Shown here piece after piece: positions 7,616-57,270 of a DNA stretch of 64,000 nt. The stretch's first letter is position 1; each line of letters starts with the position of its first letter. The notes below the pieces were generated by a model. It was not told the origin of the DNA. It made no database searches and saw nothing but the letters and a program-made list of their open reading frames with translations. The position numbers and the translations under genes are program-made. Origin of the DNA: Rhina ancylostomus (taxonomy: Eukaryota); contig JARFYF010000036.1 in NCBI GenBank assembly GCA_030265395.1, forward strand, positions 13,965,928 to 14,029,927, given 5' to 3'.

Positions 7616-7651
7616 CTTTTAAGTGTCCTTTTCATGGAAATGTAGAGTCCC
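7616..7651 (-). pseudogene. Possible 36-nt exon
   Basis: ttaattttcag acceptor and AAG|gtatga donor; reading frame ambiguous. Confidence 0.3.
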
Positions 7652-7786
7652 CTGAAAATTAAATGGTAAGAGAAATATGAAGGCATTGGCTAATACAAAG
7701 CCCACAGAACACACATCTTAAAAAGCACAAGAATGGTGTGTACATTGAGAGAAGCATCAATTAATAGATTAGGCAAGCCATCTTAC

Positions 7787-7916
7787 CAGTGATACCCAAT
7801 ATGAGTTTTATTGGTGCACTTGTATTTAATGGTGCAATAAAATATTGAATTTTAACTTTGAGTTCTTCTCTCCATGAAATGGTATTAGATGCAAAATAAA
7901 ATATTACATTCCATTA
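7787..7916 (-). pseudogene. Decayed exon: NGM*YFILHLIPFHG / frameshift / EELKVKIQYFIAPLNTSAPIK
   Basis: tttctag acceptor, CTG|gtaaga donor; phase-2 start matches the preceding exon; stop and frameshift. Confidence 0.5.
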
Positions 7917-8017
7917 CTAGAAAGATTTTATTCATGTAAACAAATTTTGATACCTTGAATTAAAGGTCATATTCACCAACAACTTGAGCTGAGGAACACA
8001 CATCAACACATTCTTAC

Positions 8018-8071
8018 CTGCTGGAAAATCTTTTGAAGGTTACAGTCTTGCATTTTTCTGCTTGCTTCATT
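8018..8071 (-). pseudogene. 54-nt exon: MKQAEKCKTVTFKRFSS
   Basis: Pyrimidine tract with ataag acceptor, CAG|gtaaga donor, open phase 2-2. Confidence 0.6.
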
Positions 8072-8639
8072 CTTATCAAGGGAAAGAATAAAATAAATAT
8101 CAGTGGATATGAAGAGAATTCAAACAGTCAGTAATAAATACTAGGAGATAGATACAGTGTGGTGGATTTGTATGTAAATATGTAAATGAGTTATGTGTGC
8201 ATGTGATATAATGATATTGTCACATGTGTGATTTAAGAATCCATAGTGGTTGTTCTGCAATGAAATATATATACATATTCTGAAAGAGATTATTTTCAGA
8301 CTGGATCAAACACACCTCCAAATACACGAGAACTGATGACACAGATGGCCAGAACAACTGAGGCTCCATATAAGAAACAGTGGTCTGAAGAAACTCTTCA
8401 AAGCACCTACTGAGCATTGCTGATTGAAGGCAATGACCACAGGATCTCAAAACTTCACAGTTGGAGAAGAGAAAACAGCTCAGGCAATGAAGTTTTCTTG
8501 GTCCACAACGAGTCAGTAATCAGCTCAGGCAGTGGCAAATTAAAAATAGAAAGACAGCAATAGTCTATAACACTGTCTGAGAGAAGCACTGATAACAAGA
8601 GAATTAAACACACGGGAGCATTGTGCATAATGCAGAAAA

Positions 8640-11160
8640 GCTTTGAGAACAGCTGTGTTACTGTTTAGGCGGGAAATGGGTCAAAATGGCACATATAGAT
8701 TAGAGAGACAGCCTTGACATGTACAATCAAATGTGAGTCCTTCACAGTATTCATGGAGAGGATGGATTTTTTTTTACTGCTGGTAATATTCTTTAAGTGA
8801 ATCATATTGAAAATGCACAGGCACTTAATACTGCTATAAGAGACTATAAGAAGGTGATTCTATTAACGGAGATTGGCTGAGACCAATTGTACGTTTACTA
8901 ATCTGAATGGCAAAGATATTCCATTCACAGTCATGTAGTAATTGGAGAATTATATCAATCGACAGCCTTTTGAAATAGCAGGTTATAAGTTTGGCGCCAG
9001 GAATCAGACAAGAAGAATCAGACAATGGCTGTATTGTTGCATGAAAGGATTGATCCAAATATTGTAACTTTGAAGAAATAGATTTGCATATTGCTTAAGT
9101 TATGAATGAATTCAAACCAAATTTTTAAGCACACAAATATTATACCTACAACATGCTTGCAAGATTGCAAAGTAAATCAAGAGGTGCCAAGGAATTTCAT
9201 TTGTGCCAGACACAAATATAATGGTAACTTAAATTCAAAAGGCTGCAGTGAATGCTCCATATCTGATAAATTCTATGTTAGCACCATGTGAGGACAAGTG
9301 GTGCAAATTCTTGCTGAAGAACTTCAAAACTTTCTTCCAGAATAACACCCTGGACCATAAGTCCATCGGGCAGTAGTCTGCACGAAACATCCTGCAGCCA
9401 CTGTGGGACAAGGACAGGATGGATCCTGTGAGTTGGTTCCTGTCCAGGTCATCTGGCAGAATGTCTCATCACCGAACTCACCAATAATCACCAAGACCTC
9501 CCTTGGCTGGCAGTGAGAGGGAGCCCTCCCTCTTGGATCTTTACTGTACAGTCAGAATTTCCCTCCCAAAGCACACTGACCTCAGGTACCACTGAAATGC
9601 CTGTGCATTTTCAATATGATTCACTTACAGAATGTTACCAGCAGTAAAAAAAATTCCATCCTCTCCATGAATACTGTGAAGGCCTCACATTCAATTGTAC
9701 ATGTGGTGAAGAGGAGATGGTCACCCACCTCTTTGCAGTTTTGTTCATTGGCAAAGAGGATCTGGAGAAGGATGAAAGGAGTCTTGCCACGGTTCATCCC
9801 AAGCAGTTGCATAACAGAGGACTCTCTGATCTATGGGCTGTTCGCAGGGATGCACACACAGATGGACATCAAGTTCTGCTGGAAGATTATCAATTTCGTG
9901 AAAGACACGCTTGGTCTGCTCAAAACTTGTTGGCCTTCCAACACAATGAGATATCCCTAAGGGAAGGCTGCTGATTCCAGGCTGCAGGAGTACGTACTGA
10001 AGGACACACTAAAATTCGGTGTAGCCAATGCAAAGGCTTTGTGGGGAAGAACTGCAATCCAGAGTCCTTCTGGCTCTGGGCACTGAGGGGCTGAATCCAA
10101 TGTGGAAGTTCCTCAAATGTCCAAAGTTTGTATTACACCAGGAGTCACTTGAGTGGCAATGGTGCATTGTACAAAAGAAATGTGCTAACACTATTAATAT
10201 TTGTAACCAACGACATGGAATGTATAAACTGAAAGACACTACAAATACAAAGAGGCATATGTGTTTTTTTTTCGGCGAACAATTGACCAGAGCAGTCCTA
10301 CCAATGGAACCCCTTTACAAAGACAAATTTGGTCCCACAGGAAAATATAGAGAGGGGTAATGTCAAGACTGATGCAAACAGAGCAGAAAGAAACTTGTAC
10401 AGAATCTGTACAACTACTGGAAATAGCGGGAAGAAGAAAACTTTCAAGAACAAATAAATGTCTAGGCTATGTGTACAGTAGTGGATTGGAGACTCCCAAG
10501 GTGTTTTTATTCATGTGGATTCTTTATGCAGATTACCAAAACAAGGTTGTTATGTAGATGGAAAAACACAATTTTTACCTTACAACTTTTGGATGATGAC
10601 TTTCCAGTCACAACTGCACAGATCATCAAGAGAACACAGATGATACTACTGAAGAGAGTCTATGAGCACGCTGTCAAAAACTGGATGAATTCAGATATGT
10701 ATCCAAATGGAAATCTGCATGCATTTTACAATGGAAAAGTACAAAACAAAACTACAACAATGCTCCTACAGACATGGAAGAGGCCGACAAATCCATTTCA
10801 GAGAGATCACGTTGATTGTTGTCAAATAAACAATGACAAGAAGCTTGCCACAACAGCGGAACATACAACTGAGAAGGAGAGATTGAATTTTATAAATCCT
10901 GGTTAACCTGAAGGGTTGGTGTCAGGTAATGGATTCAATTCACGTCATTTTTTCAAATATTTTATGAGCAGTAATAGTATCAATCTTCATCAACTCCCCC
11001 ATACCAGCCAGTCTCGAACAGTGCAGCTAAGATATCTGTACATATTCTCAAGGAAGTTTTACAAGGTTTCGTGAGCTTAACCATGAATCACTATTAAACT
11101 AACCTTTTATTTAAACCACGTTCTACCACAGGATTCTTCCCAGAGAATTCACATCACAAG
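8640..11160 (+). mobile_element. Highly degraded Ty3/Gypsy LTR retrotransposon (gag and integrase remnants)
   Basis: gag-like ESFTVFMERMDFFFTAGNI at about 8735; integrase-like FPVTTAQI...TWKRPTNPFQRDHVD...TTAEHT...PEGLVSGNG at 10560-10950. Confidence 0.7.
9300..10090 (+). mobile_element. Tx1-like LINE 3' portion nested in the Gypsy fossil
   Basis: zf-RVT-region ELTNNHQDLPWLAVRG...CGEEEMVTHLF...EDSLIYGLFAGMHTQMDIKFCWKIINFVKDTL; same family as 205-880. Confidence 0.8.
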
Positions 11161-11470
11161 ATTTGCTGCCTCACAGTGTCAGTGAGCTGGATTCAGTCCT
11201 ATGCTGTCTGCGTGGAGTTTGCATATTTTCCCTGTGACCACATGGGTTTCCTCCGAACTCCAGTTTCCTCCAAGTCCCAAAGACTTGGAGGTTGGTAGGC
11301 TCAGTGGCCAGTGGAAATTGTCCCTACCATGTAGGTAAGTGGTAGAATTCAGGGGTGTTATGGGGAAGGTGCGGAAGGTGAGGAGAATATTGTAGGATTA
11401 GTGTAAATGAGTGTTTGGTGGTTTGTGTGGGCTGAGAGTGCTGAAGGGCCTATTTCCATGTGTTTGTCTC
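11160..11470 (+). mobile_element. tRNA-derived V-SINE (HE1-like)
   Basis: gctgcctcacag head, V-domain 'tgtctgcgtggagtttgca.attttccctgtgacc', CR1-like tail 'gaagggcct.tttcc'. Confidence 0.75.
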
Positions 11471-11499
11471 TATCTCTTTATCAAAGGCGATGAACACAT

Positions 11500-12085
11500 T
11501 TGGGTCAACACACAAAAAGTCTTGGAGGAACTCAGCAGGTCAGGNNNNNNNNNNNNNNNNAAATAAACAGTCAAGGTTTCGGGCCAAGACCCTTCATCAG
11601 CATTGGAAAGGAAGAGGACAGAAGCCAGAATAGAAGGTGGGGGAAGCGGGAGGAGCACACACAGGCAGGGGATGGTTGAGTTCAGGTAATAGGCAAGTCC
11701 AGGTGAAAGAGAGATGGTAGGTGGGTGGGGGAGGGGGAGAAGATGTAATAAGCTGAGAGGTGATGGGTAGAAGAGGCAAAGGGCTAAAGAAGAAGGAATC
11801 CGGTAGGAGAGGGCAGTGGACCATGGAATGAAGGATGGGGGAGGGGAGGAGAGGAGATGGGCTGGTCATCAAGATGGGGGAAGGGAGCCATAGGAATAAG
11901 GAAGACAAAGAAGTAGGGGAGAGAAAAAGAAGGGATAGAGTTACTGGAAATTAGAAAAGAAATCGATGTTGAGACCATCAGGTTGGAGACTCCTAAGGCA
12001 GTCTATGAGGTGTTGTCCCTCCAACCTGAATCTCACCGTGGCATTAGAGGAGGCCATGGATAGACATGTTAGCATGCAAATGGGT
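11500..12085 (-). mobile_element. Penelope-like element 3' region and pseudo-LTR
   Basis: GIY-YIG C-terminal remnant near 11950-12080, purine-rich tract, and CTGATGA...GAAAC motif at 11575-11600. Confidence 0.7.
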
Positions 12086-12803
12086 TTTCTACAATCCACC
12101 TTGGAAGAGGTTGTGGAGGGGCAGCAGTCAAGCCAAAAGTAAAATCATGATTCAAAATCATGATTCATATCCCAACAGAGGGGCAAAGGGAAGCAGTGCA
12201 AAGAAGCAAAATAGTTTAGAGCGACGATTGAGTCGTCAATAGCACTGAATTACATTTTGTTCCAATTGGAGGTGATGCTAAACGTGGCCAAGTTGCAAAA
12301 TGATTGCAGCAAAAATCAAGCCAAAACTTTTGAATAAGTATGAGATAGACAGAGAGCAACCTCACTGACACCAGAGGGAGTTCAGACATGTCGCCACATC
12401 TGTATTTAATGATATTTTTTAGCAACATTAGTGGTTGCAAAATGTTATCAGTTCTGTGTCCACACTCACTAATGATTGAATTCTAACTTTCATATAGTTC
12501 CTGTCGGCAAATAATGGAAAACAATACAGTAATCTGACATGAAACCCCCAAAAGTTGGAATTAATCAGCAGATCAGGCAGCATCTGTGGAGAAGGAAATG
12601 GAGGAAATGTTTCAGGTTAATGACCTTTCATCAATAAGTTAAACTCTGCAACTTAAAGCCTATTTAGTTCTAGTTTTTCTAAGTCCCAATGAAGGGTCAA
12701 TGACTGAAGCATTTTTTTATTTGCCTTTATAATGGAAACTATCTTCTTGTTCTGGGCTGGGTTTGAATCTGGCATATGAGATGAATGGGACAGACAGGAA
12801 CAC

Positions 12804-13010
12804 CTAGATTGAATATTGACATATTTTTGAACTGCATTCAAAATTGCTTCCGGCTTCCACAAAACACAATTAACATATGGTGTTACATATGCTTTAAATG
12901 ACAAATATTGCTGAAGAAGTTACTGCTCATGGCACTGGTGAATACCTTCTGGATGAATATAACAACTAACCGTATTAAAAAGTGCCATCACCAAGGATCG
13001 ACAGTTTACG
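12804..13010 (-). pseudogene. Decayed 207-nt exon: VNCRSLVMALFNTVSCYIHPEGIHQCHEQ*LLQQYLSFKAYVTPYVNCVLWKPEAILNAVQKYVNIQS
   Basis: 68 codons with one TAA; acceptor appears mutated (tttcgg for tttcag); phase 2-2; weak donor gtgttc. Confidence 0.6.
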
Positions 13011-13180
13011 CCGAAATTCAAATTTCATTATCTTTATTACACGCAATTTTTTTAGCTATGATTTATTACCCTAATTTGTACAAACTGATAGTGTTACTGT
13101 TTGTCCTGCAACGATATAATTCACTGACTGTAATGTGATACTTTTTTTTTATCTTATATTTTTACCGGTCTGGATCATAC

Positions 13181-13210
13181 CTTTTGTTGTCAGCAATTGT
13201 AACCATCAGC
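13181..13210 (-). pseudogene. 30-nt exon: LMVTIADNK (alternative donor at 13166)
   Basis: ttttttttccag acceptor, AAG|gtatga donor, phase 2-2. Confidence 0.6.
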
Positions 13211-14996
13211 CTGGAAAAAAAAATTAGAGTGCAGACAATAATTATTGCATTATTTTTTTTGTTTGGTTCTTGGCACCAGAATTATGGAATCCCAGTGGAA
13301 TGCAGCCAGAAACCGTGCTTAAGAGAAAGTTGAATATAAAGTGTGCTAATCTGAGGATGTATTTGCCATGTGCTTGAAAGCCCTGAGTTTTATTGAGTGT
13401 GTTAGATTTCACTCTTGTCTCTATCCAGCCATGACTGTCTTTCTTCCTCACTGACAGTGACTGCAGGACAAAATTGACAGGCCTTTAAAGCCAGCTGACG
13501 AAAACCAGCATTAATTAAGTCATTGCCGGACTGTAATTTTGTTAAGAAGTAAAAATCTAATACGAGGAAAGGTTACCGAGTCCTTTCCTGTGTCAGAATT
13601 TCTACACAGCATGAATATTAATATGTCTAATGAAGACAGTCTTTGCTTCATCAAACATCATTCCAAGCACAGGTGCCAGCAGCAAACTCCATTGATTTGT
13701 GCCGAAGACAAATATGTCAGGACAGAGTGACTGTCCTACTCCTTATCTCGGATTCCCAACCTCTTTTTTTTTGTTTACTAATGGACTTTTGTTTAATAGA
13801 TCTTCCCGGGATGCTTGTAGCATAGGGACATTAAATTTACAGGTTTTAACAAGGAAACAAGTCAGTACAAATGATCTACTTATGGGTTGTCTAAATCATT
13901 TCAGTTGCCATCTCTGGTTCTGTCGCTTCATCCCACATGCAGTTTCAGGACTACTGATACAGAAAAACAATTAAGTGATAAACTTAGAAATCCTTATGTT
14001 TATGAGGCATTATGTGGCTCCTGTGCACTGAATAGATGTACTGGTAAGGTGTTTATTAGCTTGCAGCAGCCATTTATTGTTGAGAACACTGTGGGGTTTC
14101 TTGGTTTATCACAATTATAGTAAATGTTTGAGGTTTTTTTTAAATTAGAAAAGCAGTTTGACAAAAACATGCACTAATGACATTGTTTTCAGCTTAGGAT
14201 TGTGGAAGATGTACCATGGAGGACTGCTATTTTTTGTGTTTAACTGCCGTCATGATGTGATTCTCAATAAGATCATCACAGTCAAAGTTTACGTGACGGA
14301 AGTGATTTTATATCTTATATTCAGCTAAGTATTTTGCACTATTTTCTCCACCAACAACTTTAAGAATGATATACTTGCCTTTTAAAATTAGTAGCAATAG
14401 CATAATATGATGACTTAGAAAGCTGAGAATGTGATTTGAAGTTGTTCTGTTTACAGGATTCAGAAACATTAGTGGGAAAATAAGGATTGGAAACAAAGGA
14501 ATGAAATGTATCTAAAGGACAGCCACACATGATTGAATTTCCATTAAAAATGGGGTTATTTTCTTCTGCACAATTAGAAATTCACCCTAGTCAGTAGCAA
14601 TAAGTATGTTATTGGGTAGCTGCAGAACTATGTGCTTTGCCTCAGAAATTCACTCCAATAGAATGAATGATGGATGCAGAGTGCAACACACTCCCATAAC
14701 CAAACATCGTACTATGGGTACGAATGAGCTTCAAGGCAAACGTACTTGGCAGCCTGCAACAATATACAAGATACTGTCTGATCAAAACTCATTTATTTTT
14801 GGATGTGCACTGGACATACTGTAATCTATAAGGCTACCAACCATCAGGTGGGAAATGGGATTCAGCTGAACAGTAGTTTTTAAACCAGTGTGCACATGAC
14901 GAACTGAACTGACTCCTGTATTAAGTTCAATGGTTTCAGGAGAAATGGCTGTTGAACATCTAGGCAGATATGTACACCTGCTGGAAATGCCTTTAC

Positions 14997-15153
14997 TTCC
15001 TCCTTCCCTCTTCCAGTAGCTTGTCCTGATCTCTGCACATTTTGTCACTGATGCACTCAAATGTGGGACCACCATGCTTGTGCTGAAGCCTTAAAGCCTC
15101 AAAGGGACTTTCAGCACCTGAGTTACTGTGGTCCTTTGCAACTTTAAGAAATT
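14997..15153 (-). pseudogene. 157-nt exon: EFLKVAKDHSNSGAESPFEALRLQHKHGGPTFECISDKMCRDQDKLLEEGRR
   Basis: ttcttgtttttttag acceptor, GAA|gtaaag donor, open frame, phase 1-2 compatible with both neighbours. Confidence 0.7.
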
Positions 15154-15723
15154 CTAAAAAAACAAGAAATACTTGCAGAATCACAACAGCAGCAAAAAGA
15201 AATCAACCAACAACCAATCTGCAAGTAGCGGATAAACATTAATAAAGTCCCATTGGGAGTTCCTTGCTGTTGCTTATCACATGTTCAGCTCTGAAAAGCT
15301 AAAAGTGGAGATTAATTGGGCTCTGAAATGCTCATGATGTTCATTAAATCATTTGCTGTTCCATCGCTCATGGTGTTAGTAATACACACAAATCACCCAA
15401 CAAATGTGCAACTGGGGGTGCCAGTTTGAAAGGCACTCAAGCCTAACAAATGGGCACCACTGATCCAAAGCTCAATGTGGCACAAAATCTGGTGCAGAAA
15501 GTCAAACGGTGAGGAGAAAGAAATAATAGAGTGAAAAGAAAACCTTAAAAAGTGAAACATATTTAAAATTTTAGACATCTCCAAAAATAACTAAATTCTG
15601 AAAGAATGAGATTCCATATTTGCAAAAATAGATTTCCAATGCTAAAGAGGTTGTTGGATAGTAATGAAGACCCATCATACAGGTGAAAAATCAGTAAGAT
15701 ATAGATGTTTAGTGCATACTTAC

Positions 15724-15768
15724 CCTCTTTGCATATTGGTGAATCTCCCAGGTAATTACAGCAAACAA
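15724..15768 (-). pseudogene. Short exon: VCCNYLGDSPICKE
   Basis: Strong donor GAGG|gtaagt, phase-1 end matches the next exon; acceptor uncertain. Confidence 0.5.
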
Positions 15769-15804
15769 CTAGTAATGTAGTTATTAGTGCTGTGTAATTT
15801 TATT

Positions 15805-16150
15805 TTATTATTCATTTATGGGATGTAGATGCTTGAAATGCCAGCATTTGTTATCTGTTCCTAATTGGCCCTGAAATATAGAGACAGTTAAGAGCTGACC
15901 ACATTGATGGACCTGGAGTAACATACAGATCTGGTAAAGACAGAATATTTCCTTCCTTGAAGGTTGATAGTGAACCAGATGGGATTTTGTGATTACAGTT
16001 ACTAAGATCGGCTTTTTTAGATTCCAGATTTATTTAATTCTTTGAATTTATTTTTCCCAGTTGCCATGTTGTGATTCAAGCCAGTATCTGTGGATCAATG
16101 GCCCAGAAATGTATTTGCTAGTTCCATTGCTTCACCACTAAGTACCAGAG
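15805..16150 (-). mobile_element. Old SINE with LINE-derived tail
   Basis: Reverse-complement similarity to 26555-27050. Confidence 0.5.
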
Positions 16151-16520
16151 TACATTGGACAGCTTTCCAAATGAACTCCATATTTGCAACCTTTGAAAAT
16201 TGCTGTGTGTTTTATGTCAAAAAATAATGAACACTCTTCCCGATATACTTGCAGGTCAATGCAAAAAAAACAATAGATGGCACTGAGGTCTCAAGATATG
16301 ACTAACACATGCCCATTGGTCTTGCAAAACCCTTGCTACAGCTTCATTATTGTGACTGCTGTAACCATTCAGTGCTCATTATGTTGTTAGTGGCCCTAAC
16401 CCATAACCACCAGCCTAATGTTATGCAACTGGGACCAGCTGTGATTGAAGTTGTGCATGCCCCTTTAAGGGGGAAATGTTTCTGGTTGTAATTAATCATG
16501 AGCATGTTTTGCAAACTTAC

Positions 16521-17105
16521 CAGAAGACATAGTAGAAGAGAGGCAGTAACTGATCTTCATACGTAACTGTGAATGCTTTTGTTGGGATTTGGAAGTCCTT
16601 GTCAGAGAAGTACAGGCGCAGCCTTTTTTCCCTCCGACTCTGGGTCTCCTTGCTGCTCTTTCTTCAGTATCAGTTGCCATCTACTGTTGGCTAGGTTCTC
16701 TGGCATACCACACTCACTGATGAAGTCTGTGTGCCCAATCTCATTCAGGCACATGAATCTCGTCTTTGGAAGACTGATGGCACTTTTTTAGTACTTGTGT
16801 AGTTCTTGTAATGTTAATAAAGCTTCCCAGGTAGCACTGTGAATTAGCATGAAGAGGAAGGCAAGATTCATGTGCCTTCCTCTTCATGCTTCTTCTTCCT
16901 CTTCATTTGACCCTGTTCCAAATTCCACTGAACCATCCTGATTGACAAAAGCCATAACAATGCCTGCAGTAGAGGAGTTCTGCCAGTGGTGTCGCCACTG
17001 AGGTACCCATGAATCAAGTGCACTCGATGAACTTCCAGTGTTTGAGCTGCTTGCAGTCACTTCTAAAGCTGTCCAGTCAATTTCCCTTATGTTGAAGAGT
17101 ATTCC
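16521..17105 (-). pseudogene. 585-nt decayed exon: E*LFNIREIDW...GIVMAFVNQDGSVEFG...A*RGRHMNLAFLFMLIHSATWEALLTLQELHKY*KSAISLPKTRFMCLNEIGHTDF...WQLILKKEQQG / +1 / RLRLYFSDKDFQIPTKAFTVTYEDQLLPLFYYVF
   Basis: tgttttaag acceptor, CTG|gtaagt donor; about 160 codons in one frame with 3 stops, then a frameshift in an A6 run at about 16625. Confidence 0.75.
16846..16890. repeat. Perfect 18-bp inverted repeat with 9-nt spacer
   Basis: AGCATGAAGAGGAAGGCA-agattcatg-TGCCTTCCTCTTCATGCT. Confidence 0.95.
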
Positions 17106-20100: not shown

Positions 20101-20392
20101 TTTCATTGAATGTATAGGTTACATGATTTTATTTTAAATAGACTATGATTATTATATTATCTACTGTTGTCTTGTAGCAACTTTGAGGTGTTGACCAGAA
20201 GGGGGTTGAGATGTGGCAGCTGAAGGGAGATGTGGCTGCAGATTCCTAGAAACATTGTCCTGTGAGGAGATTTCTGCTGACAGAGTCTAAGCAATCTAAT
20301 GGTGTCCCATTGTGCCATTAACAGGAAGCGCAGGGGGAAAAGAAATCACATCCCTGGGAGACACCCAAGAGCCAACAAAAGTCTGTTGCTAC

Positions 20393-20538
20393 CTGATGCA
20401 GATGTTCCTCAGAAGATGTGCCTTTGTCTGAATGACACTTGTCAAGGCTTGCATTAGATTTCAAAGCCTCTGAAGAGTTTACTGGTGGAAAGTAGCCGTC
20501 TTCAACAATTATCACTCTGAACCATCTGAACCATAGCC
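20393..20538 (-). pseudogene. 146-nt exon: LWFRWFRVIIVEDGYFPPVNSSEALKSNASLDKCHSDKGTSSEEHLHQ
   Basis: gctttctcag acceptor, CAG|gtagca donor, open, phase 1-0; internal 9-nt tandem duplication. Confidence 0.5.
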
Positions 20539-23519: not shown

Positions 23520-23694
23520 GCAGAAACAAAGAACTGCGAATGCTGGAATCTAGACGAAAAAAGAACAAGACTCTGGAGGAACTCAAAGCAGACTGTCAAC
23601 GTTTCAGGTCAAGACCTTTCTTCAGGACTGCAGATAGGAAAAGGGGAAGCCCATTACACGGGGGGAGAAGCAGAGCAGTGTTAGGTGGACAGAA
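23520..23694 (-). mobile_element. Penelope-derived pseudo-LTR with hammerhead-like core
   Basis: Minus strand GTC-CTGAAGA-A-AGGTC-TT-GACCT-GAAAC-GTT-GAC at 23595-23628. Confidence 0.65.
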
Positions 23695-23814
23695 GAGGGG
23701 AGGCGGGGTGGGCANNNNNNNNNNNNNNNNNNNNNNNNNNNNNNNNNNNNNNNNNNNNNNNNNNNNNNNNNNNNNNNNNNNNNNNNNNNNNNNNNNNNNN
23801 NNNNNNNNNNNNNN

Positions 23815-42464: not shown

Positions 42465-42975
42465 AATTTCTCTCAGCTGCGCAGCTGTTCATTTTCAATC
42501 AACTTTAAGGATTGAGGATCTTTTTACAGTCATAAAATTTTACAGCACAGAAACAGGCCTTTTGGCCCATCATGTCTATGCTGACCTTTTTGCCCATCTA
42601 CACTAATCCCATTTACCTGCATTAGGGCAGTATCCTTCCATGCTTTGCCTATTTATGCACTTAAATATCTTTTAAATGTAGTGATTGTATCTGATTCTAC
42701 CATCTCCTCTGGCAGTGACTTCCAGATATCAACAATTCTCTATGTAAATAAAATCCCTCATATTCCCTTTAAAACTCCTTCTTTTCACCTTAAACCCTAT
42801 TGTATTTGATACACCTCCCATAGAAAAAAGATTCTGACTATCTACCTTATCTACACCTCCAATAATATTATTTATCTCAATCATGTTAACCCCCACCTCC
42901 TCTGTTCAGGGAAAAAAAGCCAAGCCTGTCCGATCGCTCCACATCACTAAAGTCCTCCAATGAAGGCAACATCCT
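42465..42975 (-). mobile_element. CR1 LINE 3' fragment
   Basis: 'tacagcacagaaacaggccttttggccc...ctaatcccatttacctgca' CR1 3' end in reverse. Confidence 0.75.
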
Positions 42976-43357
42976 CATTTTGAGTACTTTTTTTTTTGCT
43001 GTGCAGAGTGATCCTCTCAATGTGAATCTGAGTTTCTGCTTCATTTTCTAGTCATTTCTCCTGGGCTATTTCCTGGGTTATTAATATTTCTCTCATCTGG
43101 TATCATTGTGCTGGAGTTAGCTTGTCCTCTTTAGACCAGTTGACATGTTCTTTCCCAAGTATTTTATCACCACCTCCCTACATACACAGCCATTGAATTT
43201 CAAGAAAGAGGTACCAAATTAAGAAGAACTGTGTTTGTTGCAGTCATCGTTCATATATGATTTTCTTTAATTGGACTATCTTCCATACAGCAGGTATTAT
43301 GGCTGGTACCATTGACATAGAAAGCCTTGTTATTGCTGAGATAGGTGGAATACTCAC

Positions 43358-43451
43358 CAGCCAGTTGAAAATTCAGTCTTAAATTTTTTTTAAACTTTCT
43401 TGTTTCAGACCTGCTTTCAGCTGATCCATTAGAATAAAGGGTAACATGAAA
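43358..43451 (-). pseudogene. 94-nt exon: FHVTLYSNGSAESRSETRKFKKNLRLNFQLA
   Basis: tttccttgtcag acceptor, consensus donor CTG|gtgagt, open, phase-1 end compatible with 20538; may start further upstream at 43497. Confidence 0.6.
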
Positions 43452-45479: not shown

Positions 45480-45845
45480 GGATAAACTTGCCTCTAGTAC
45501 ACAGATCCAGAACATGGTTCTCAGAAAATAAAATCGAGTAGCACCAGCTGTTTGGGCACTACAGATGTTGACTTCACTTAAATTTTATACATCATGTCTT
45601 TGGAACCATTCAAGGAAAAATCAAGGCGTCACTTTTCACATCAAGGAATAGGGATCTAGAATTCTTTTCCCCAAAACTCTGTGATTGTTGGGTAACTTGA
45701 AAATGACTGTGATCATTAAACTTTGGTTAGCTAGATTATCAAGGGATGTGCAGTAAAAACATGTAAATGGAGCTGAAGTACAGATCAACTACCTTGTGGC
45801 TGAATATCGAACCATTTCACATAACTGAATGGCTTACTCCTGTCT
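45480..45845 (+). mobile_element. Old CR1 3' fragment
   Basis: Degenerate CR1 ORF2 end/3' UTR ('gaatggcttactcctg'). Confidence 0.5.
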
Positions 45846-48800
45846 GTGCAAGAATAACCATTTAAATGGCAATTGCAAAGTGAGCTACTTATCTTACTAA
45901 ATTAAGTACATTGCAATTTGTTTTATTGACATTTGAGTTAAAATTCAAATTATTTATCAAATAATTTAGAACTAGGTTTTCTTCTTTTTATCTGTAAATG
46001 CCAGGAATGAAAAAAAAGCAAGGAATATGGAATTATTTTATGTTTTTTAAAGAATAATGACTGCCTCCAGCACGTTCTCAGAAACGCAAAATACACATTT
46101 CACTGTGTGTTTCGAGGTACATGTGACTAATAAATAAATGTCCTACGTCACCTTTCTTATAATGAGTATCACCTTCAAGACAATGCTAATGTCATTAAAT
46201 TGCATTTCAAAACACCAGTTTTAATGCTTTTAATTCAAAGATTCGAAGCAGACTTTGGTCTAAGCTTATGGAAGGATTGAATATAACTGTATAAACTTGA
46301 TTTTACATGAAATAATTTAATTACACTATGCGAGTTGAGTCTGGATAGCAGCTGCAAAAAAAAATATATTCCACTATCAAAAATTCCAATGCTTTACATA
46401 ATGGCAAAAAGGAAAAAAGATCGGAAGCATGAAAATCAGAAATCCACAAAAGCTAGAAAGGAATGTTGGTCAAAATGTTGGGTGTAAGTTTGAATCCAAA
46501 GCAGCTCAATATGTTGGCTCTGGTCTTCTCTTTTACACAAAAATGTTAGAAGGGTGCATGTTTTCAATCAAAATTATTAAGACAGTTTGGCTCCTGCATT
46601 ATTTTTAATTACCTTGAAGTAAGATATTTTGCTAGTACTTTCATTTAATTCTAAAAGGCTTCAAATGAAGTAGAGGCAGTTTCTTTGTTAACTTTGCCCC
46701 ATCTCTTCTGCAATAATACACTTCCCCTTCATTAAGGCAATGTCCGATGTGCTACATTCTCTAATATTCCATACATTGTTTATGGCTCCCTGATTAATAA
46801 GGGAAGTATACAAAACATCCTCATTATAATGCCAGCTTCAATACAACATGTTTTTATATGGCTCCCAAAGGAAGCATTATATCGAGGGGTTGCTGTATTA
46901 TTCATTAACTGTTTAGTTATTCATGTTTCTTTTTTAAAAAGTGCTTTCATAAAATTATTTGTTACTAACATTTTTGACTTCATGGATGGCCACACTAGTA
47001 CAGTGAAATTATTATTGCAAGGAAACAGATCTTAAAAACATTGTTGAAACAGGAAATTAACTTGCTAGCAATACTGGCTGAAAAGGATTTGTATGTTGTT
47101 GAATTGCTATAGTCATAGAGCTTTGAAATCACACCAGACAGCCACAATATGAATTCTAGTCTGCCTGCACGTGAAGTTTTCAACCCCAGATAGGTTTCAT
47201 TGATGTTAAACCAAGCAAGTGGAATTCAGATGAATTAGGAAGAAAAGTGAATGAAAACCAGCATCACTAGCCTCACCTTAGAAAACAACTTACTAGAGAA
47301 TCATTGCACAAAATTTTCATTGGTATAATTCTCTTTGGCTACCAGTATTTTCAAAAATGAGTATAAAGAGCAGACAGACCTTAATCAGATGTCACAATTA
47401 ATACCTGATATAAAACACCATCATCATCATTCCTAATGTGTGAAATACTATTTCATTGCTTTGAAGTGAAGATAATTTTAAGGCCCATTTTAAAACAGAA
47501 TTGAAATTTGCTTTTTAAATAAATTGAAAAAATGAAGTAATAATTAAGGACATTATTGACGACTGAAAGTTTGATTTGGTAGCTGGTGGAATTTCAGACC
47601 TGAAAATAACTCAGTTGATACATCTGTTCTTCTGCCATTGCAATAGCACAGAATCAAGCTTCAGCCAAGAATCACAAAAGAACAGTTAAAAATGCATGTT
47701 ATTAGTATTTTAATGAATGGTACCTGAAGTACTGGGAGAGGGAGAATTTGGTCTCCTGAAGTTAATATTAGAGGGAAGATGCAACACCATTCTAGAACAT
47801 GTAGCTTTCTTTCACTTGGGCAAAAATATTTATTTTACTGGGATTTTCTGGATGTCACTTGCTTATTCATATTTATTGTTAATCAGATTCAAAATTCCAT
47901 AAATTGCCATTCTGGATAGTAATCAAATATTACAATTCTTCTGCCACCATGAGATGGTGTCAGGTTGAGACACTCAACTTTGAGATCAGATGTGTTGCTG
48001 AAATAGCTATCGAGCTTTTCTCCTAAGTCTTTGCTACTTTGCATAGTGCTTGAGGACACCCATTCTCGCTCCCAAAATCAATATTGCTTTGGATCATTTT
48101 TTCTGTTATGACTGATGGTTTGACTGAGTGAAAGCAAGCAAATACAAAACTAAATTTGTGAAGTGATAATTGCTTGTCTATAGAACGAGCTCCATTACTT
48201 GAATTCTTTTTGAATTTTTGTAGAAAATAAAGCAACAGATTTGTTGTCAATTTAACTGACCCCCTGAAGCTGCTAAAATTTAATTGGTGATAAAACAATT
48301 AGCAGGAACTACGCAGTAGCATACATCAATTAGCATCAGTACAGAATTTCTTGGATTGTAATATGATGCTTATTTAGACACTGATGCCTATTTTAAATTT
48401 CAAGCAAATTGTTAAAGGTTGCCAGAGAAACATGGAAATTCTGAAATCAACACAAATGTCTTTTTCTAACTGCTTTGGCTCCTGGTGTTTCATGCAAATC
48501 AAAGCCTGAGCTCAACCAGTTATGACACCAAACTGACAACGAAATTCCATTTCAAGAAGAATTTTCAGATTGGTCTGTAAAAGAAACAGCCAGGTGGAGA
48601 TTTCTGGTTCCAAGTTGCATTTACATACGATGCTGATTTAAATATATAGTAGCACCCTTCTGGCATAATTTCAAGTTTTTTACAAAGTTATTTTTTTCTT
48701 TCAGTGGTTTCATAGTAGTTCCCAAAAGCAGATGTCTCCTACTAATTAGAAGTAATATGTTTTTTCAGTAATCTTCCCTCACTGAGTGGTGGGTCCTGAG

Positions 48801-48899
48801 AGCTAGCAATTATTTTATTTGCAGTAATCTGTTTACACATCCTTGTGCCACTTCAAACTCAAACCATGTTTTACTGCTACCATTCTGACAACAAGTTAC

Positions 48900-49140
48900 A
48901 AACACACAGGAATGGAAGCAGGGTAGGTTATATAGCCCTTCAAGTGTGCCACACAGTTAAGTATAATCTGCCCCGTGCCTCAATTATTGTGCCAGTTCCA
49001 CATAGCCCCCAATTCCTTAATCTTTCGAAAATGTATATACCTCCTTCCAAATACCTCCAATGACCCAGCCTCCGCAACACTTTAGGGTAGAGAATTCTAG
49101 AGATACACCATACTCTGAGAGTAGTAATTCCATTTATACA
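48900..49140 (-). mobile_element. Old CR1 3' fragment
   Basis: 'aatgacccagcctccgcaacactttagggtagagaattc' CR1 pattern in reverse. Confidence 0.55.
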
Positions 49141-49278
49141 GCACTTTTAATGCTGCAAAACACATCAATTGATTTCGCTGTATGGAATCAGAATAGAGCA
49201 GATGAAGGAAAGGACTGAAGTTGGTATTTGCCTGTAATATGTTGTCCATCCCAATCATTGTTTCCTACTTGCAGTTGT

Positions 49279-49326
49279 GTGGTTGCCAGCTCTTACTAGG
49301 TGTTGTTAGTAGGAGCTGGCAACCAC
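49279..49326. repeat. 20-bp inverted repeat hairpin
   Basis: GTGGTTGCCAGCTCTTACTA-ggtgttgt-TAGTAGGAGCTGGCAACCAC, one T/G mismatch. Confidence 0.9.
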
Positions 49327-49560
49327 CTATGTTAACTAGTAGTCAGAGATGACTTATTTAACTCTTGAAATATCATTGCCACATCAGAAGTGCAAAATGT
49401 GTTACAACACTCCTTGCAAGAAAGCTGTAAACATATTCAAGTAACTACCAGTTGGTCTTTTCCTTAATATTGTATCAAAGAATCATTACAGATGTATGCC
49501 TAGAAATGATTTAGTACTGAAAAACCAACACAGCATGGATTGCCCACTTTCAGTTTACAC

Positions 49561-49860
49561 TAAGAAACAATCTGCTGGAGGAACAGTGGGATAAGTAGCA
49601 TCTGTGGTAGGAAAGGAATTATCAACATTTCCGGTTGAAACCCTGCATCAGGACTCAGATGCCAGGACACCATTCCTGATGCAGGGTTTCAACCCGAAAT
49701 ATCGGCAATTCCTTTCCTCCCACAGGTGCTGCTCGACCTGCTGAGTTCCTCCAGCAAATAACCACTTATGATAATAAGATAAATAAAAGGAAAAATGTTA
49801 GAATGTTAGAAGTAAAAATGTTAAACCCCAAACATTCACCCCCAAAACTAACTAAACGTG

Positions 49861-49905
<45 letters not shown>

Positions 49906-50128
49906 NNNNNNNNNNNNNNNNNNNNNNNNNNNNNNNNNNNNNNNNNNNNNNNNNNNNNNNNNNNNNNNNNNNNNNNNNNNNNNNNNNNNNNNNNNNNNNN
50001 NNNNNCACACACACAATCTTAAAGGAACCTCACTAATTGTAACCTAGTCCGTAACACTTAGTGTAAACTGAAAGTGGTCAGATTGTTAGTTGCCCCAGAT
50101 TCCAGCATCTGCAGTCTCTTGTGTCTTT
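49561..50128. mobile_element. Palindromic Penelope-derived element with an internal insertion
   Basis: Inverted arms at 49570-49757; resumes at 50079; flanked by AGTTTACAC direct repeats (49552-49560 and 50129-50137). Confidence 0.7.
49863..50015. repeat. (TG)n and (CA)n microsatellite flanking an N gap
   Basis: Seen directly in the sequence. Confidence 0.95.
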
Positions 50129-51039
50129 AGTTTACACCAGGCAGCCAGCAACAATATCTTAACATATGAGGCCCAAGTCACACAAAAAAAAGTCTTTCCT
50201 TTGCTACCTCCACCCTTGAAATCAGATTGGGTGTTGCCTGGGTCTGGGCCCAAATGGCATCAGCAATAAGGAGAGATGTTGGGATGAACACTATGAAACA
50301 TTATTAAAGCAGCCTTACCCGGGAGAAGATCCACATCTTGGGGTCTTGGATAAAGTTGATTCCCTCTAGCAAAAGAAGAAGCTGACCTGAACTTTGCTGC
50401 TATAGCCAGGGTCCCAAGTCATTTGCAGGTCTTAAGTGGGATGCACAAAAAAACTGCATGAGATATCAAAATGGGTGTTTGAAACTGCTGCAGATGTTGA
50501 GTGGCCTCTGGAGGATCCAAAATAAATTTACGAAACTGTGCAACCCACACATATCAAAACCCAGCTGCAATTAATGATCGGCTGTTTGATTAAATTCCTC
50601 CCACGGCAGACAAAAATGCTGCAGTATGTAAAAAAACAATCAGGATCTTAGTTTTATGATTTAAAACAAGAAAAATGTCTCATCCAACACAAAGAGAATT
50701 TGGAAGTAATCAAGAAAATGGGAACAAGATGGATAAAGACCTAGGCATTTATATTTTAGAAGTGTATTTTAACCACCTGGAGAGCCAGCAAGACTCACCT
50801 CCATAGATAGGACTCCATTGGGATGTTTCTGTACAAACAACTTTGTTGGCTCAGGGTATAAGCAATAAAAGTTTAATAATTAACTTCTTAAGAATGCCAG
50901 GTTTAATGTCAATTCAGATGTAAGCAACTGATCCCAGTGAACCTTTCTGATTTAGATGTGAAAAACTCAATCATCTTTATTGAAAATAAAAAATAAAGTT
51001 TTCAAACTTTATGAATTTTTCCTGTATAATTTGAGTCAA

Positions 51040-51600
51040 GTAAAAGCATTGGTGAGAACACACCTGGAATATTGTGTGCACTTCAGGTCGCCACACTATA
51101 GGAAGGATCTGATTCAGCCAGAGAGGGTTCAGAAAAGATTCACAAGGATGTTGCCAGGACTGGAGGGCTCCACTTCTGAGGAGAGACTGGACAGGCTAAG
51201 ACCGTATTTCCTGGTACAAAGCAAGGGTGACCTCACAGAGGTTTATAAAATCATGAGGGACATAGATAAGGTGGATGATCACAGTCTTTTTTTCCAGGGT
51301 ATGGAAGTCTAAAACTAGAGGACATAGGTTTAAGGTGAGAAGGTAAAGATTTAAGTGGGCCCTGAGGGACAAGTTTTCCACACAGAGAGTGGGGGGTATA
51401 GAGAATGAGTTGCCAGACGAAGTGGTAGAGGTGGGTACAATTGCAAAGTTTAAAAGACATTTAGACAGGTACATGAATAGGACATGTTAAGAGGGAATAT
51501 GGGCCAAATGCAGGCAAATGGGGCCAGCTCAGGAATGCACCTTGGTCAGTACGGACAAGTTGGACAGAAGGGCCTGTTTCCATGCTCGAAAACTCTATGA
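51040..51600 (+). mobile_element. CR1 LINE 3' fragment
   Basis: KALVRTHLEYCVHFRSPHYRKDLIQPERVQKRFTRMLPGL...GDLTEVYKIMR, with 3' UTR. Confidence 0.9.
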
Positions 51601-52999
51601 ATAAACTGTACTTGCTGGAATTAAACAACTTTAATGAAATATTGCAAATATAAATTTATAATTAGGTAAGTAAACTGTGCTTGCAGTTGGATAATTGTTT
51701 CAAAAAATCAATAACACAGTAATGATGACTAAAATAATTAAATTATACACCTGAAGGTATCTGTTAATGTTGATAAAAGGTAATTAAATGTTGAAGATCA
51801 TATTTAAAAAGGAAAACACCTTTAATAAATTATTAATCAAAATAAAGATCATGTTGGTATCATAGTGGTTAAAATGACACAGAATTGTTCCACCTGTTGA
51901 GGATGGAATCTGAACGTCTGAGGTATCAGACAGCAATATTCTATTCAATTGTCCCTTCAAACAGATTTCAATCCAAAAATGGAAACAACATAATTATTAA
52001 CTTACATGGACCTTATCTGCAGGTACCTGTAGCTTTCTCTGATATCCAGTGCTCTGCCACATTTATTTACAAATGTTTACAAAAAGTTTAATTTGAGAAA
52101 ATAATTTATATGCTCATAGCTGGTAGTTAAACTTGTCAGAGATCTACTACTTTCAGCATTTTTCAATCAACCAAATTGTTGACACTTTCATCATATTTTC
52201 TTTCTAATTTTGTGTACTCTGAGACGATTTTACACAAGATTTGTGACAACATGAAGTTGATTCTGTATCAAGAAATATACCTAACTAGTGCAATAAAATA
52301 AATTTCTACTATGGGTAATGATCTGCCTAAAAAAATCTTTCAAACTTCTTCAAATTGCAGTACATAAACATATATGCATCAAACACCAACAAATTGAACA
52401 AAGTCAAAAATAAACCCAACACTTAACAGCAAACACTAATTTGAACCACGTTTAAAATAAATCATTCCAAAGAATTATTGTAATCTCATTTTTGTATTTT
52501 TTTACATGTTTGTGTTTACTGGTGAGTGATGCTGAAAACATTGAGAACTGATTCCTAGAACCTGCAATGGAAACTATATCTTATAACCAGAGATGCAATG
52601 ATCAACTCAGGACTACTTAACACAAGATGTTAGGTGCTAATCCAGCTCACTGGTACTGTTGTGCTCAGTAACTGTTCTCAGCCAGAACCTTGCTAATGTC
52701 TTGCATGCATTTCATTAAAGTTAACAACCATGGACACAAAAAAGGGAAAGACGTTAAAAGTTAATTAAAATGCTGTCTTATATTTGATTTTTACACTAGA
52801 TGCTGATGCTGAAGCTGCTTAGAGCTGGCATTTGAATGTTGCATTAAAAAATTTACAAGCTCCTCTGATAACTTAATGTGACACTGAGTGATATTGCCCA
52901 CAAAATTCCCAACTCTGGATTGTGCTGCTGTGGTCAATTTTAGCTATGGTATCAGTTCAGACACAAAAACTGATGTTAATATATCTGGGCTAGAAAGAG

Positions 53000-53155
53000 G
53001 TTAAAAAAATGTAGCAGGGGTTCCTCCAGATCACTGGTCCTGCTAAATACGTAGAACTGGGTCAGTTTAAGGCATAGATATAGTACAGGCAGATGAAAAA
53101 TAGTCTCCGCATCGAGGCATCCAAGAAATCACTGGTTCTTATGAGTTTCCATCTT
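53000..53155 (-). pseudogene. Possible decayed exon (DGNS*EPVISWMPRCGDYFSS...TDPVLRI*QD)
   Basis: Strong pyrimidine tract and ttcag acceptor; stops in all frames; donor unclear. Confidence 0.35.
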
Positions 53156-54905
53156 CTGAAGCAGAAGTAGGAAAATTGGAAGAGGAAGAAAACTGTATAT
53201 TGTATGTATATATGAGAAAATATAACATCAAAACAGACCAAGTCTATATGTGTCAAATGTGAGAGGCAGGGAATGAGTAGTACAATCTATTTGTATTTAT
53301 ATTGCAATTATGCTGGGTAGGGTGTAGTTTATTGCAAATATATTTTGTGAATAGTGAATTACTATTCTTGCAGAGCTTTCCAACTAGCATATACTTATTG
53401 TCCTAATTATAACTGTGGGTTACTGAAAAGGTCACCTGCACTCATGGTCAATTTTCACTTCCAACTGAGTAATGCATCTGGCATTATAAAGTGTAAGGAT
53501 TTGCCAGAGCTGCTGGAAAAACTTCTTCCTGGAATCCAGTCATGTAACCATAGGCAGAAATTTCTAGGTGTATGCAATTCCTGTGTGCAATAGAATGGCC
53601 ATTTATCATATCTGTTAGAAACTAAGTCACCCTGTACATCAGACTAGCTCCATTAAGACAGGTCCATTGGGACTTGATTTAAATACCTTGGAGATCATTG
53701 AAACGGAGAACTCTTCCTTGAAAAACACATCCCTCATAAACAAGTCCATATTAAAAGGAATCAACTTTCTCTAAATAAGAGCGTAAGGCAGTTACTGATG
53801 CTTTAATCAGTTCCTAAAGTTTTCAAAATCTAAATTCAACAACAGAGCTGAGGATTTGTATTTAATCTGAATTTATGGTTCTTTTTTTTATTTGAAGCCT
53901 TGGAATGTACTCAGAACTTTTTAAGTGATTCGAGTACCAGTTTTGTTTTCTGAGGGTTTTTTGTGTTCTAATTAGCTGCTGCATGCAAATCTCATGCCTT
54001 AGGAACTCTGTGAGATATATTTCAGAATTTGGAAAGGAAACTAATATTGACAAGTAAATTCAGGACTGGCCTGGAAGCTGAGAGAACAAGAATGGAATTC
54101 TCAGATGCAGAATGATGCAGATTTAAGTCCAGGTTTCTACCATCACACTCATTATCATTACATATCCAGTTTGTGCTGGTCTAATAACATTTAAAGTTTG
54201 CATCCAACTCAAAGAATGAAGCCACAGAAGAACAAGAAATCCCTGGACTTTTGTGAATACTGGTATAAATTACAACTGCAGTGTGTAAAGCTGTTTCCTT
54301 TACAGCTCATGTACGATATCAGTTAAACCTCAAATCCTTATTATATCTCCTTGTGGCACACTGCTTTTTTTGCACTCCCTATGAGAAGGTTAAACAATTA
54401 CATGCTACTAATTGGTGTATGTCAAGACTGATGAGGAGGCAAATAAACAACGAACAAAAGACTGAAAGAAATGCTGGCTAATTAAATAAGTTTATGTTAA
54501 AAAAAATTAAGGAAATCTCAGAAAAGGACCAGCTATCTCTGATGGTTTCATGGCAATGAATTCCTCGTTATAGCACTTACTGTGACAGGGTGAACAACGT
54601 AAATTAGATACAACATATACATCCTTAATTTAATTCTTCATTCTAATAATTATTCAGCCAATGTTATGCAGCAATCCCAGCATGAAAAATAAAACTGGTG
54701 TATATATCACAATGTTTTCCAAATAAAAATGGAGAGTAAAGGTCTTCTTCTGAGTCAAATTTTGTCCCTTGGTATTTTACTGGGTAAAAATAATCCTTTC
54801 ATTCTGTCCAAGACGTATAGAAATGATGAATTCCTACACAGATGTGGGTGATAACTGTATTTCTTAACTGTCAGGTCTATGAAGGTTGTCCATGGGTTGT
54901 CTTAC

Positions 54906-54959
54906 CACTGTCGAAATATCCGACGTGACATTCCTCCACATCTTAGCCCCAAAAAGCCC
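54906..54959 (-). pseudogene. 54-nt exon: GFLGLRCGGMSRRIFRQ(W)
   Basis: attaag acceptor, GTG|gtaaga donor, open phase 2-2, retained CpGs in AT-rich surroundings. Confidence 0.55.
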
Positions 54960-56904
54960 CTTAATCACAAGGGAGATAGTTAGCTTTATGTAAGGATTAT
55001 TAAAATCAAAGAAAATTTATGGGTATCACTTTGTAATAATTAATCAGAAGCTGTTGATTAATAAAGTTCATTTTTTATTCTCGATGATTCAGTTATATAA
55101 GAAGGGTATTATCAAATGGATATTGTCCTTGTCATTTTGATTAACAAACCAGTTTTCATAACCAAAGAAAATATTTTCAGCAGCATCCTTTTCTGCCTTT
55201 AAAAAAATAAATATTGAATGAGAATATTAGGCAGTTAACCTTGACTACAATTTGTAATTTTCATGGGGGAAAACTTGCATATTCAGCAAATAAATTGCTG
55301 CGGGGATTTAAAAACAAATTGGAGCTGGTGAAGAATGCTACCGTATGAATCCTGTCATTTTTATGGGTTGAAATGATTAATTAGTTTGTTTAGCTCTTCA
55401 ATTAAGCCAAGGAAAACTGCAGAGGCTGGTGAACACAAATGTTAGAAACAGGCCTGGTACATGGGCTTTTTAAAGCAAGAAATATCTAAGGTCACCAGCT
55501 CCTTTTTGTCACCTTCTCCAATTTTCACCACCTCCATCTTTTCTTTGCCATTTAGTCTCACAAGCCATCAGGATAAGAGTGATGGGTTCCTGTCATAGTG
55601 GAACATCACAGGAACAAATCTGGTCAGCATTGGCATTGATATGTTAACTGGAACATGCAACATTGCCATGAGTCCACATAACCTTAACTCTTCTGGATAT
55701 ATTTTGAGTTGTAGGGTGAGACAAAGTCCAAAATGGCCAGAAGGACAATGGATTTTCAACAAATAACCTACCACAATCTGCATTTTTATCCTCAGTACCA
55801 GCAATGTCTGAAAATTCTGAAACCCTGATCTCATTGTTTAATCTCATCTGTTATTTAACAATGAAGCAAATTACTATTACTTTGCATTCAAAAACCTAAT
55901 CCACAGATTGCATACCTAGTTAGCACGACAATTGGCTTAATTGTGGGGTTGGATTTAATCATCAGTCTTCACAGGCATTTAAACCTGGTGGCAATTGTGT
56001 TTAATTTTATGATAAGGTCCCCCAAGAAGGATTTCTTTCAAAGGAAAAGAAAATTAAAATGATTTCTACCTAATGGGTAACTGCAGAGTGACATTGATAG
56101 TTTCCACAAAATCGAGTGTCAAATTCCACAAAATCTTCAAATCCTGAAATAAATGAAGAGGAAGATAATGAAAACAAAATTAAAATGGTGGGCAAGATAA
56201 CAATCAAACATCTAACCGAAGTTAGAGTACATCTAAGAATTAAAATTTAAAATTTATCTTAACTTTAAGGCAGGACAATTTAACTATTAATTACAATGTT
56301 AACCTCCTTTGACATTTTGACTACTTATCATTCCGTTCCTATTTTAATTCCCCCATGTGATGCACCATACCACCAACAGACAGGTGAGCAGGTAATCAAG
56401 CTTCTATAGATGTCATTCTCTAAACAACCTCTGAGGGATTTCATCAGCTTCCATTTTTTGTTCCATTAACTCTTTTCATTGCCTTGCTCACGCAGAGATT
56501 GTAATCGAGAACTCAATGTCTGAAGACACTGTTTTGCCACCCTATAGAGAGGCAAGTAAAAATGCAATGCATTCCCGAATTAGCTACATCATTCTAAATT
56601 TAACATTTTTTAATCTATCAGATATTTGACAAGTGAGGAAACTGAGTAGTGCATTTGATAAGAACATGTTCACAAATTCAAGTTGCTGCTTGAAGACTGG
56701 TTTGACAACTGTAGTATAAAAAAGATTCTCACAAAGGACCCAGATGTAGTATCTCCCAATAGCATAGCTGAAGTAATTGAGGTCTGATTCATTAATGTCC
56801 TTCAGTAAATATATTTCATGTCAGCATGTTACAGAGACACCAAAGCAGGTCCTGGCTTTTACCAGAGCCCCATGTCTCTGTGGCAGGAAGGTGATTACTC
56901 TTAC

Positions 56905-56993
56905 GCATGGAAAAGGTGAGGTAATCCACTAAAAATTGAGTGAGAGGGACATAAACAATAGCAGCCAATGCAAAGAATGTCAGCATAGGCAAT
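56905..56993 (-). pseudogene. 89-nt exon: IAYADILCIGCYCLCPSHSIFSGLPHLFH(A)
   Basis: tttcattttgcag acceptor, TGC|gtaaga donor, open phase 0-2, compatible with 54959. Confidence 0.5.
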
Positions 56994-57079
56994 CTGCAAA
57001 ATGAAATAACAAACAATAGTTCCAGTGAATGAAGCAGATTAAATGCAAATTGATCACTGCATCCTAATTCATTTTTATT

Positions 57080-57270
57080 TGGCATGATCTGGGGCTTTCC
57101 AGCATCCCTGTTTGGCCAGCATAGTTCATTGAGCACCATACAATACTGCCTTTCACCCTGACCAGGTGTCCTTTCCATGTCCATAAAGACATGTGAGTTG
57201 GGATTGTTGCAGATAAGGACAAGGTGCTCTTTCATAATATCCTCCAGCAATATTTAACTCTCTGAGGTCC
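57080..57270 (-). pseudogene. Possible exon: LLEDIMKEHLVLICNNPNSHVFMDMERTPGQGERQYCMVLNELCWPNRDAGKPQ
   Basis: Protein-like 5' part of ORF 56816-57250; splice sites not clearly preserved. Confidence 0.35.

Follow-up and report, generated by a model that had tools for sequence, protein, structure and literature searches.

Does the minus strand of a 64-kb stretch of the genome of the ray Rhina ancylostomus (genome size 2.2 Gb) hold the fossil of a spliced gene, and if so, of which family? The stretch, hereafter the window, covers positions 13965928-14029927 of contig JARFYF010000036.1 (C36), and an earlier note had read in it a hidden multi-exon fossil gene of about 50 kb, possibly a lost member of the GREB1 family. 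We find that a 585-nt block at 17105-16521 is clearly a remnant of real coding sequence, that its neighbours between 20538 and 8018 are plausibly remnants of the same gene, and that the ~50-kb chain is plausible as one gene, its distal blocks being unproven, its small blocks individually weak, and chance pseudo-exons common in the window. Our cautious judgement is that the chain is probably what is left of a dead, single-copy, spliced protein-coding gene, that is, a unitary pseudogene, which matched no family. The GREB1 story, to which the locus owed its appeal, is not supported by our sequence comparisons.

A decayed coding exon and its neighbours

The large block shows a coding bias specific to one frame, a strong donor and premature stops, and it is followed by five downstream junctions in frame. 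Coding potential was scored with a model trained on 10.3 kb of the GREB1 and GREB1L exons of this genome, which gives true exons 1.1-1.8 bits/100 nt and background -12. Between 17105 and 16626, the block scores +3.0 bits/100 nt in one frame versus -7.8 and -8.9 in the other two, a score equalled by 1 of 5705 non-repeat background windows (a Teashirt exon and a Gypsy remnant having been masked beforehand) and by none when score and frame bias are taken jointly. Against a background matched for GC and stops, only three of 16 segments stand out, namely 17105-16626 (p=0.020), 16624-16523 (p=0.012) and a previously unlisted block, 57232-57062 (p=0.042), and the segments from 20538 to 8018 combined give p=0.009, with the large block carrying the effect. 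Former coding sequence with disabling lesions, as expected of a unitary pseudogene, is thereby found in 17105-16521 and only weakly in the other blocks. As for an intact copy elsewhere in the genome, searches with three protein queries (the 585-nt block, 15153-14997 and an open frame at 58588-59067) returned self-matches only, among the best-scoring candidates.

So how would a gene have come to look like this? It would first have lost its function; neutral decay would then have introduced stops and frameshifts and broken an acceptor. About 5 stops per 530 codons are observed, versus 5.8 stops per 530 codons simulated at 10% substitution, and a decay level of about 10% substitution would fit this stop density. 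Judging from the stops, the frame changes and the GG acceptor in the DNA, a protein is probably not made today. The blocks from 20538 to 8018 would, with lower confidence, belong to this dead gene; for the distal blocks at 43-59 kb it could go either way.

The blocks are given below from upstream to downstream. Splice sites were scored with matrices built from 42 introns of this genome's GREB1 and GREB1L, and ranks are among the window's minus-strand sites.

58694-58867, minus strand: extra candidate upstream exon, new here; acceptor top 2.6%, donor top 0.2%; runs on into 57269 in the coding-like frame, one stop included
57060-57269, minus strand: unlisted coding-like block at the chain's upper bound; coding p=0.042 (57232-57062); acceptor top 14.7%
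56905-56993, minus strand: candidate distal exon; acceptor top 0.2%, weak donor; p=0.80 in the claimed frame, not coding-like
54906-54959, minus strand: candidate distal exon; donor top 1.8%; coding p=0.52
43358-43451, minus strand: candidate distal exon; donor top 1.2%, acceptor top 9.3%; coding p=0.55
20393-20538, minus strand: probable exon, stop-free; acceptor top 1.0%, donor top 7.8%; coding p=0.23; in frame with 43451-43358, not with 17104
16521-17104, minus strand: large decayed coding exon, core of the remnant; stops at 16886 and 16790; frame change near 16625; donor top 0.1%
15724-15768, minus strand: candidate small exon; donor top 0.7%, weak acceptor; coding p=0.93, not coding-like; in frame with the next exon
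14997-15153, minus strand: probable exon, stop-free, single copy; acceptor top 0.1%; coding p=0.40; in frame on both sides
13181-13210, minus strand: probable 30-nt exon; acceptor top 0.1%, donor top 1.1%; in frame on both sides
12804-13010, minus strand: candidate exon with GG for AG at the acceptor and one stop at 12922; coding p=0.17
8018-8071, minus strand: candidate exon; donor top 0.1%; in frame; coding p=0.19
7787-7916, minus strand: doubtful exon, AT-rich, with stops in all frames; donor top 0.5%, weak acceptor; p=0.85-0.99, not coding-like
7616-7651, minus strand: doubtful short exon at the chain's lower bound; donor top 1.1%; one-base shift required to keep frame

All 11 blocks of the earlier note lie at the positions it gave and reproduce its peptides. 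GT follows 11/11 of them and AG precedes 9/11; the exceptions are 13010, where the GG that the note had reported in place of AG is indeed present, and 17105, which is preceded by AA, the true AG-bounded start being 17104. Seven of the 11 donors and four of the 11 acceptors rank within the top 2%. Eight phase-compatible junctions had been claimed, and this stands for the five from 15768 to 7916, which share one frame (with a stop in 13010-12804 and another early in 7916-7787), and for the stretch from the last part of 56993-56905 through 20393, which is in one frame without stops, but not for the 20393/17104 junction, which is out of frame at the canonical acceptor. Rather than two frameshifts, the quoted peptides require at least four frame changes, namely near exons 1-3, on entering the 585-nt block, within that block, and in 7916-7787. 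At least five in-frame stops had been counted; four could be placed (16886, 16790, 12922, 7906), and further ones in the last exon depend on the frame that is chosen. At the upstream end, 58867-58694 sits inside a 160-aa single-copy open frame (58588-59067, minus strand) that is among the 12 best coding windows and may be a further exon of the remnant, while 57060-57269 has two weak other matches in the genome (E 0.004 and 0.057), both stop-bearing. A 719-base N gap at window 57619-58337, just upstream of the exon chain, may conceal an exon.

Might the gene instead be alive, or only recently broken, and unannotated elsewhere, some of its lesions being assembly errors? The assembly does have gaps and misplaced pieces (C17 carries the GREB1 exons that a gap on contig C2 lacks, and C1 a match to the last exon), and one possible frameshift falls within an A-run of 43451-43358. 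We consider this improbable: the lesions, which comprise four or more stops, several frame changes and the GG at an acceptor, lie in sequence without gaps, and this assembly shows no such damage in its GREB1 and GREB1L exons.

Copy number and relatives

A dead gene is nonetheless a reading against which several observations weigh. The 12 segments originally listed reach Fisher p=0.064 when combined, the blocks had been picked for their open frames and splice sites, which inflates the statistics, and the coding model rests on only those 10.3 kb from two genes. Within the window, 95 candidate exon entries are free of stops and have good sites, 58 on the plus and 37 on the minus strand (boundary and frame variants counted as separate entries), so that splice sites and open frames by themselves prove little, and the 22 windows of 278 with the best ab initio exon-chain scores do not include this region. 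The first frame of the 585-nt block, which was the sole query in the searches of large protein collections, has no relative at E<=0.001 among 1,835,955,588 protein representatives, nor did a word search restricted to 960 candidates of 343-2000 aa return one. A gene dead for only ~10% divergence should have intact orthologues in annotated sharks, and a GREB1L exon of this genome does find a Mobula protein at 95% identity in a collection that includes annotated shark and ray proteomes. Because the stop density fits decay of about 10% and an intact orthologue was not found, the alternatives of a transposon plus chance exons, a live gene and a divergent GREB1 keep some probability.

Domain and structure searches gave nothing relevant. 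The 585-nt block has no match in PDB and reaches PHROGs at E 0.065 or worse; 0/10 queries matched NCBIfam; Pfam gave no relevant match for 16 exon translations (two weak, unrelated ones) and only two weak, unrelated matches for 85 of 211 minus-strand open frames; Rfam gave none. The window exon queried in Atlas had no match there, and a GREB1L query led only to unnamed and helicase-like clusters. A single-sequence structure model of the large block has a mean pLDDT (predicted local distance difference test) of 33.4.

Could the large block, and perhaps 58867-58694 as well, then be an old single-copy transposon or other inserted element, with the small blocks as chance pseudo-exons that selection of candidates strung together? 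The block is without a cellular relative, the surrounding desert holds many element remnants of similar coding score, chance exons are plentiful, and most of the small blocks are not coding-like. Yet both the block and the 58588-59067 frame are single copy, Pfam, NCBIfam and PHROG show no element domain in them, and the donor at the end of the block ranks in the top 0.1% and is followed by five in-frame junctions. We regard an element as the less likely origin, while giving it appreciable weight. A suggested KDZ-transposase likeness of 15153-14997 was not borne out; PF18758 had no match on the exons or in the genome, and the controls of the genome search were likewise blank. Repeats found in the fetched DNA overlap 0/13 blocks.

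Is it a GREB1 gene?

The GREB1 family was reportedly first described by Iyer and colleagues in 2013. GREB1 has a zinc-binding domain at its N-terminus, a circularly permuted SF2 helicase that is inactive, and a glycosyltransferase at its C-terminus; related proteins are found across eukaryotes (PMC7968844; PMC6163654). The locus is, as had been stated before, no orthologue of either known gene: GREB1L lies on contig C119 and GREB1 on C2, both intact-looking, and isolated GREB1 exons are located on C17 and C1. The four Pfam models of GREB1 (PF15782, PF20692, PF20691, PF20267) have no match on contig C36, and PF20692 (cpSF2-GREB1) is also absent from the 16 exon translations and the 85 of 211 open frames. 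Genome matches to PF15782 (GREB1_N) and PF20267 (GREB1_C) at E<=0.1 occur only on C119, C2 and C1, and 7/7 matches to PF20691 (TAGT) belong to GREB1 or GREB1L. The earlier note had seen no TAGT exon in the window, which we confirm; extending the search with GREB1-family proteins to 120 kb left of the window was also negative, where gaps or heavy decay could conceal TAGT. A third TAGT gene on C17 was considered and rejected, as it consists of two misplaced GREB1 exons, an effect of assembly: C17:1471716-1474419 (L040) carries two GREB1 TAGT exons, C1:57201308-57201481 is apparently the last exon of GREB1, and GREB1 on C2 has a 4412-N gap where these exons belong.

More sensitive comparisons stayed near chance, with vertebrate profiles as well as with profiles of 50-70 diverse family members. 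On the joined exons, a profile built from 18 GREB1L proteins scored below zero, and it found no signal in the flanks. Our home-made spliced, frameshift-aware profile aligner, which recovers GREB1 at 1836 bits, scored the minus strand of the window at 22.1 bits versus 22.8-30.0 on nine control strands. For distant members, a metagenome scan with a family motif gave 41 family open frames (cpSF2-GREB1 being confirmed by Pfam in 7/7 tested), and an alignment search added 29 proteins. Neither 20 long metagenome members, nor the 29 further proteins, nor 15 reconstructed genes gave a significant match, singly or as profiles, and a 23-sequence family profile scored the joined exons at 20.6 versus 16.2-22.3 for 30 shuffles. 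Phage and viral collections contained no GREB1-like loci, a query of invertebrate type detected no GREB1 gene of that kind in this genome, and the suggested link to cnidarian or amphioxus proteins was not found with a comparison set that had no recognised amphioxus or lamprey member. The metagenome GREB1 family is itself diverse and retains helicase motifs lost in vertebrate GREB1; loci L043 and L077 contain long open frames with cpSF2-GREB1, TAGT and ankyrin.

What, then, remains of a very divergent third GREB1-family gene, one that would have combined a circularly permuted SF2 helicase with TAGT and would have decayed in this lineage? There are several short echoes in family order, found by eye. 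With a larger family profile, exons 15153-12804 reach 24.7 bits versus a shuffle maximum of 24.6 (30 shuffles), or z ~6 when the block is chosen post hoc, and exons 56993-54906 score 24-26 bits against the motif-V region in one clade, with shuffle maxima of 22.5-26.6. These two best local matches are, however, out of order with each other, contradict the original assignment, and lack the invariant residues: GR.GDTFP and Q..GR, found in 13/13 aligned members, and GKTG, found in at least 90%, are all absent from the exons. Block by block, the best family matches seldom fall on the exons.

The claim that family echoes follow the expected order fared no better, as motif-chain scores of 43.6 and 46.4 were equalled by 36/60 and 6/60 codon shuffles and by 50/60 and 9/60 exon permutations, so that the order of the exons is no better than a permuted one, and three of the quoted motif patterns occur, as written, in 0/120 GREB1L proteins. 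The ISW...YFS...LRI.QD segment is present at ~53135-53040, but it lies outside the listed blocks and is not coding-like (p=0.25). Motif matching by eye was rejected as evidence because the exons could be fitted to different motifs with equal success.

As a positive control, we subjected fragments of 1590 nt, taken from ray GREB1L and from a held-out member, to simulated decay and compared them with a 60-sequence non-vertebrate profile. Vertebrate members took part in the first definition of the profile columns, an advantage for the GREB1L control. At 10% substitution, GREB1L scored at least 41.6 bits and the held-out member at least 81.1 bits in 10/10 cases each, versus 23.2 bits for the real exons and up to 25.5 for shuffles. 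Decayed true members were detected 20/20 at 10% and 20/20 at 15% substitution, and detection drops, to 4/10 and 8/10, only at 25%. With profile, spliced-alignment and motif-order tests at shuffle level and true members always detected at matching decay, we do not uphold membership of the family; a very divergent GREB1-like gene is unlikely, and as a full account of the locus we would give it only a slight chance.

The surroundings of the locus

The locus is a gene desert between PFDN4 and a Teashirt gene. A PFDN4 exon lies ~504 kb left of the window (E 3.6e-13), and ~340 kb to its right lies a Teashirt-type zinc-finger gene, which we take to be TSHZ2 and of which the best PDB match is Teashirt homolog 3 (E 4.5e-51). 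These were the only two clear genes in exon scans of the flanks that reached 610 kb to the left and 410 kb to the right of the window, scans that may miss small or gapped genes, N making up 39,711 of the leftmost 200,000 bases. PFDN4 (L231:5609-5716, minus strand) and the Teashirt gene (L212:6092-8962, plus strand) point apart across ~840 kb, and ZNF217, BCAS1 and CYP24A1 were not seen between them in these scans. This arrangement presumably differs from the human gene order and suggests an inversion.

The window also contains what we take to be remnants of LINE (long interspersed nuclear element) ORF1-like, ORF2-end and Gypsy-like retrotransposons, at 3148-3909 (minus strand), 2954-3301, 9580-10360 and 50962-51605, most of which recur in the flanks. 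A GC-rich, decayed element at L007:6000-8200 (window -54000 to -51800) is presumably Gypsy-like, with reverse transcriptase, RNase H and integrase-like frames. An exon-like block with good boundaries lies at L017:4945-5157 (minus strand; window coordinate ~99,000); its start looks SH3-like by eye, and Pfam gave no match. Literature searches turned up neither this locus nor a third GREB1 gene in vertebrates, and nothing on GREB1 with elasmobranch and pseudogene, or on tshz2/pfdn4 synteny.

Comparison with known systems

A genuine chain would be the trace of a gene once present in jawed vertebrates that is not shown by any annotated proteome searched here. An intact orthologue might still await annotation in a shark or chimaera, in the interval bounded by PFDN4 and the Teashirt gene. 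Until the family is named or an intact copy turns up, the locus says little about biology. Were the GREB1 account true, for which we see little prospect, a third, invertebrate-type GREB1-like helicase-glycosyltransferase gene would have reached the cartilaginous fishes as a neighbour of Teashirt-2 and been lost in the ray lineage. That would be a vertebrate gene loss not yet on record, far more divergent than any member sampled here and from a family linked to the glycosylation of DNA and proteins.

Compared with GREB1, GREB1L and the GREB1-like proteins of invertebrates and protists, the likeness consists of short by-eye echoes and two marginal matches of 24-26 bits only. The locus differs from that family in Pfam match, profile signal, motif order, invariant helicase residues and a nearby TAGT, all of which it lacks, and its exon sizes are unlike those of GREB1 and GREB1L. 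Spliced transposase genes of the KDZ/Zisupton type are multi-exon, and their relatives are said to be common in invertebrates. The locus resembles them in being multi-exon and decayed, and in a faint motif echo in 15153-14997 that was not borne out; unlike them, it has no Pfam KDZ match on that exon and is single copy. Vertebrate unitary pseudogenes are single copy and retain an exon-intron layout marked by stops, frameshifts and a broken splice site. Proven cases differ from this locus in that an intact orthologue, normally the proof, can be named for them. In all other respects listed, namely its single copy, its exon-intron layout, its stops, its frameshifts and its broken splice site, the locus is like a unitary pseudogene.

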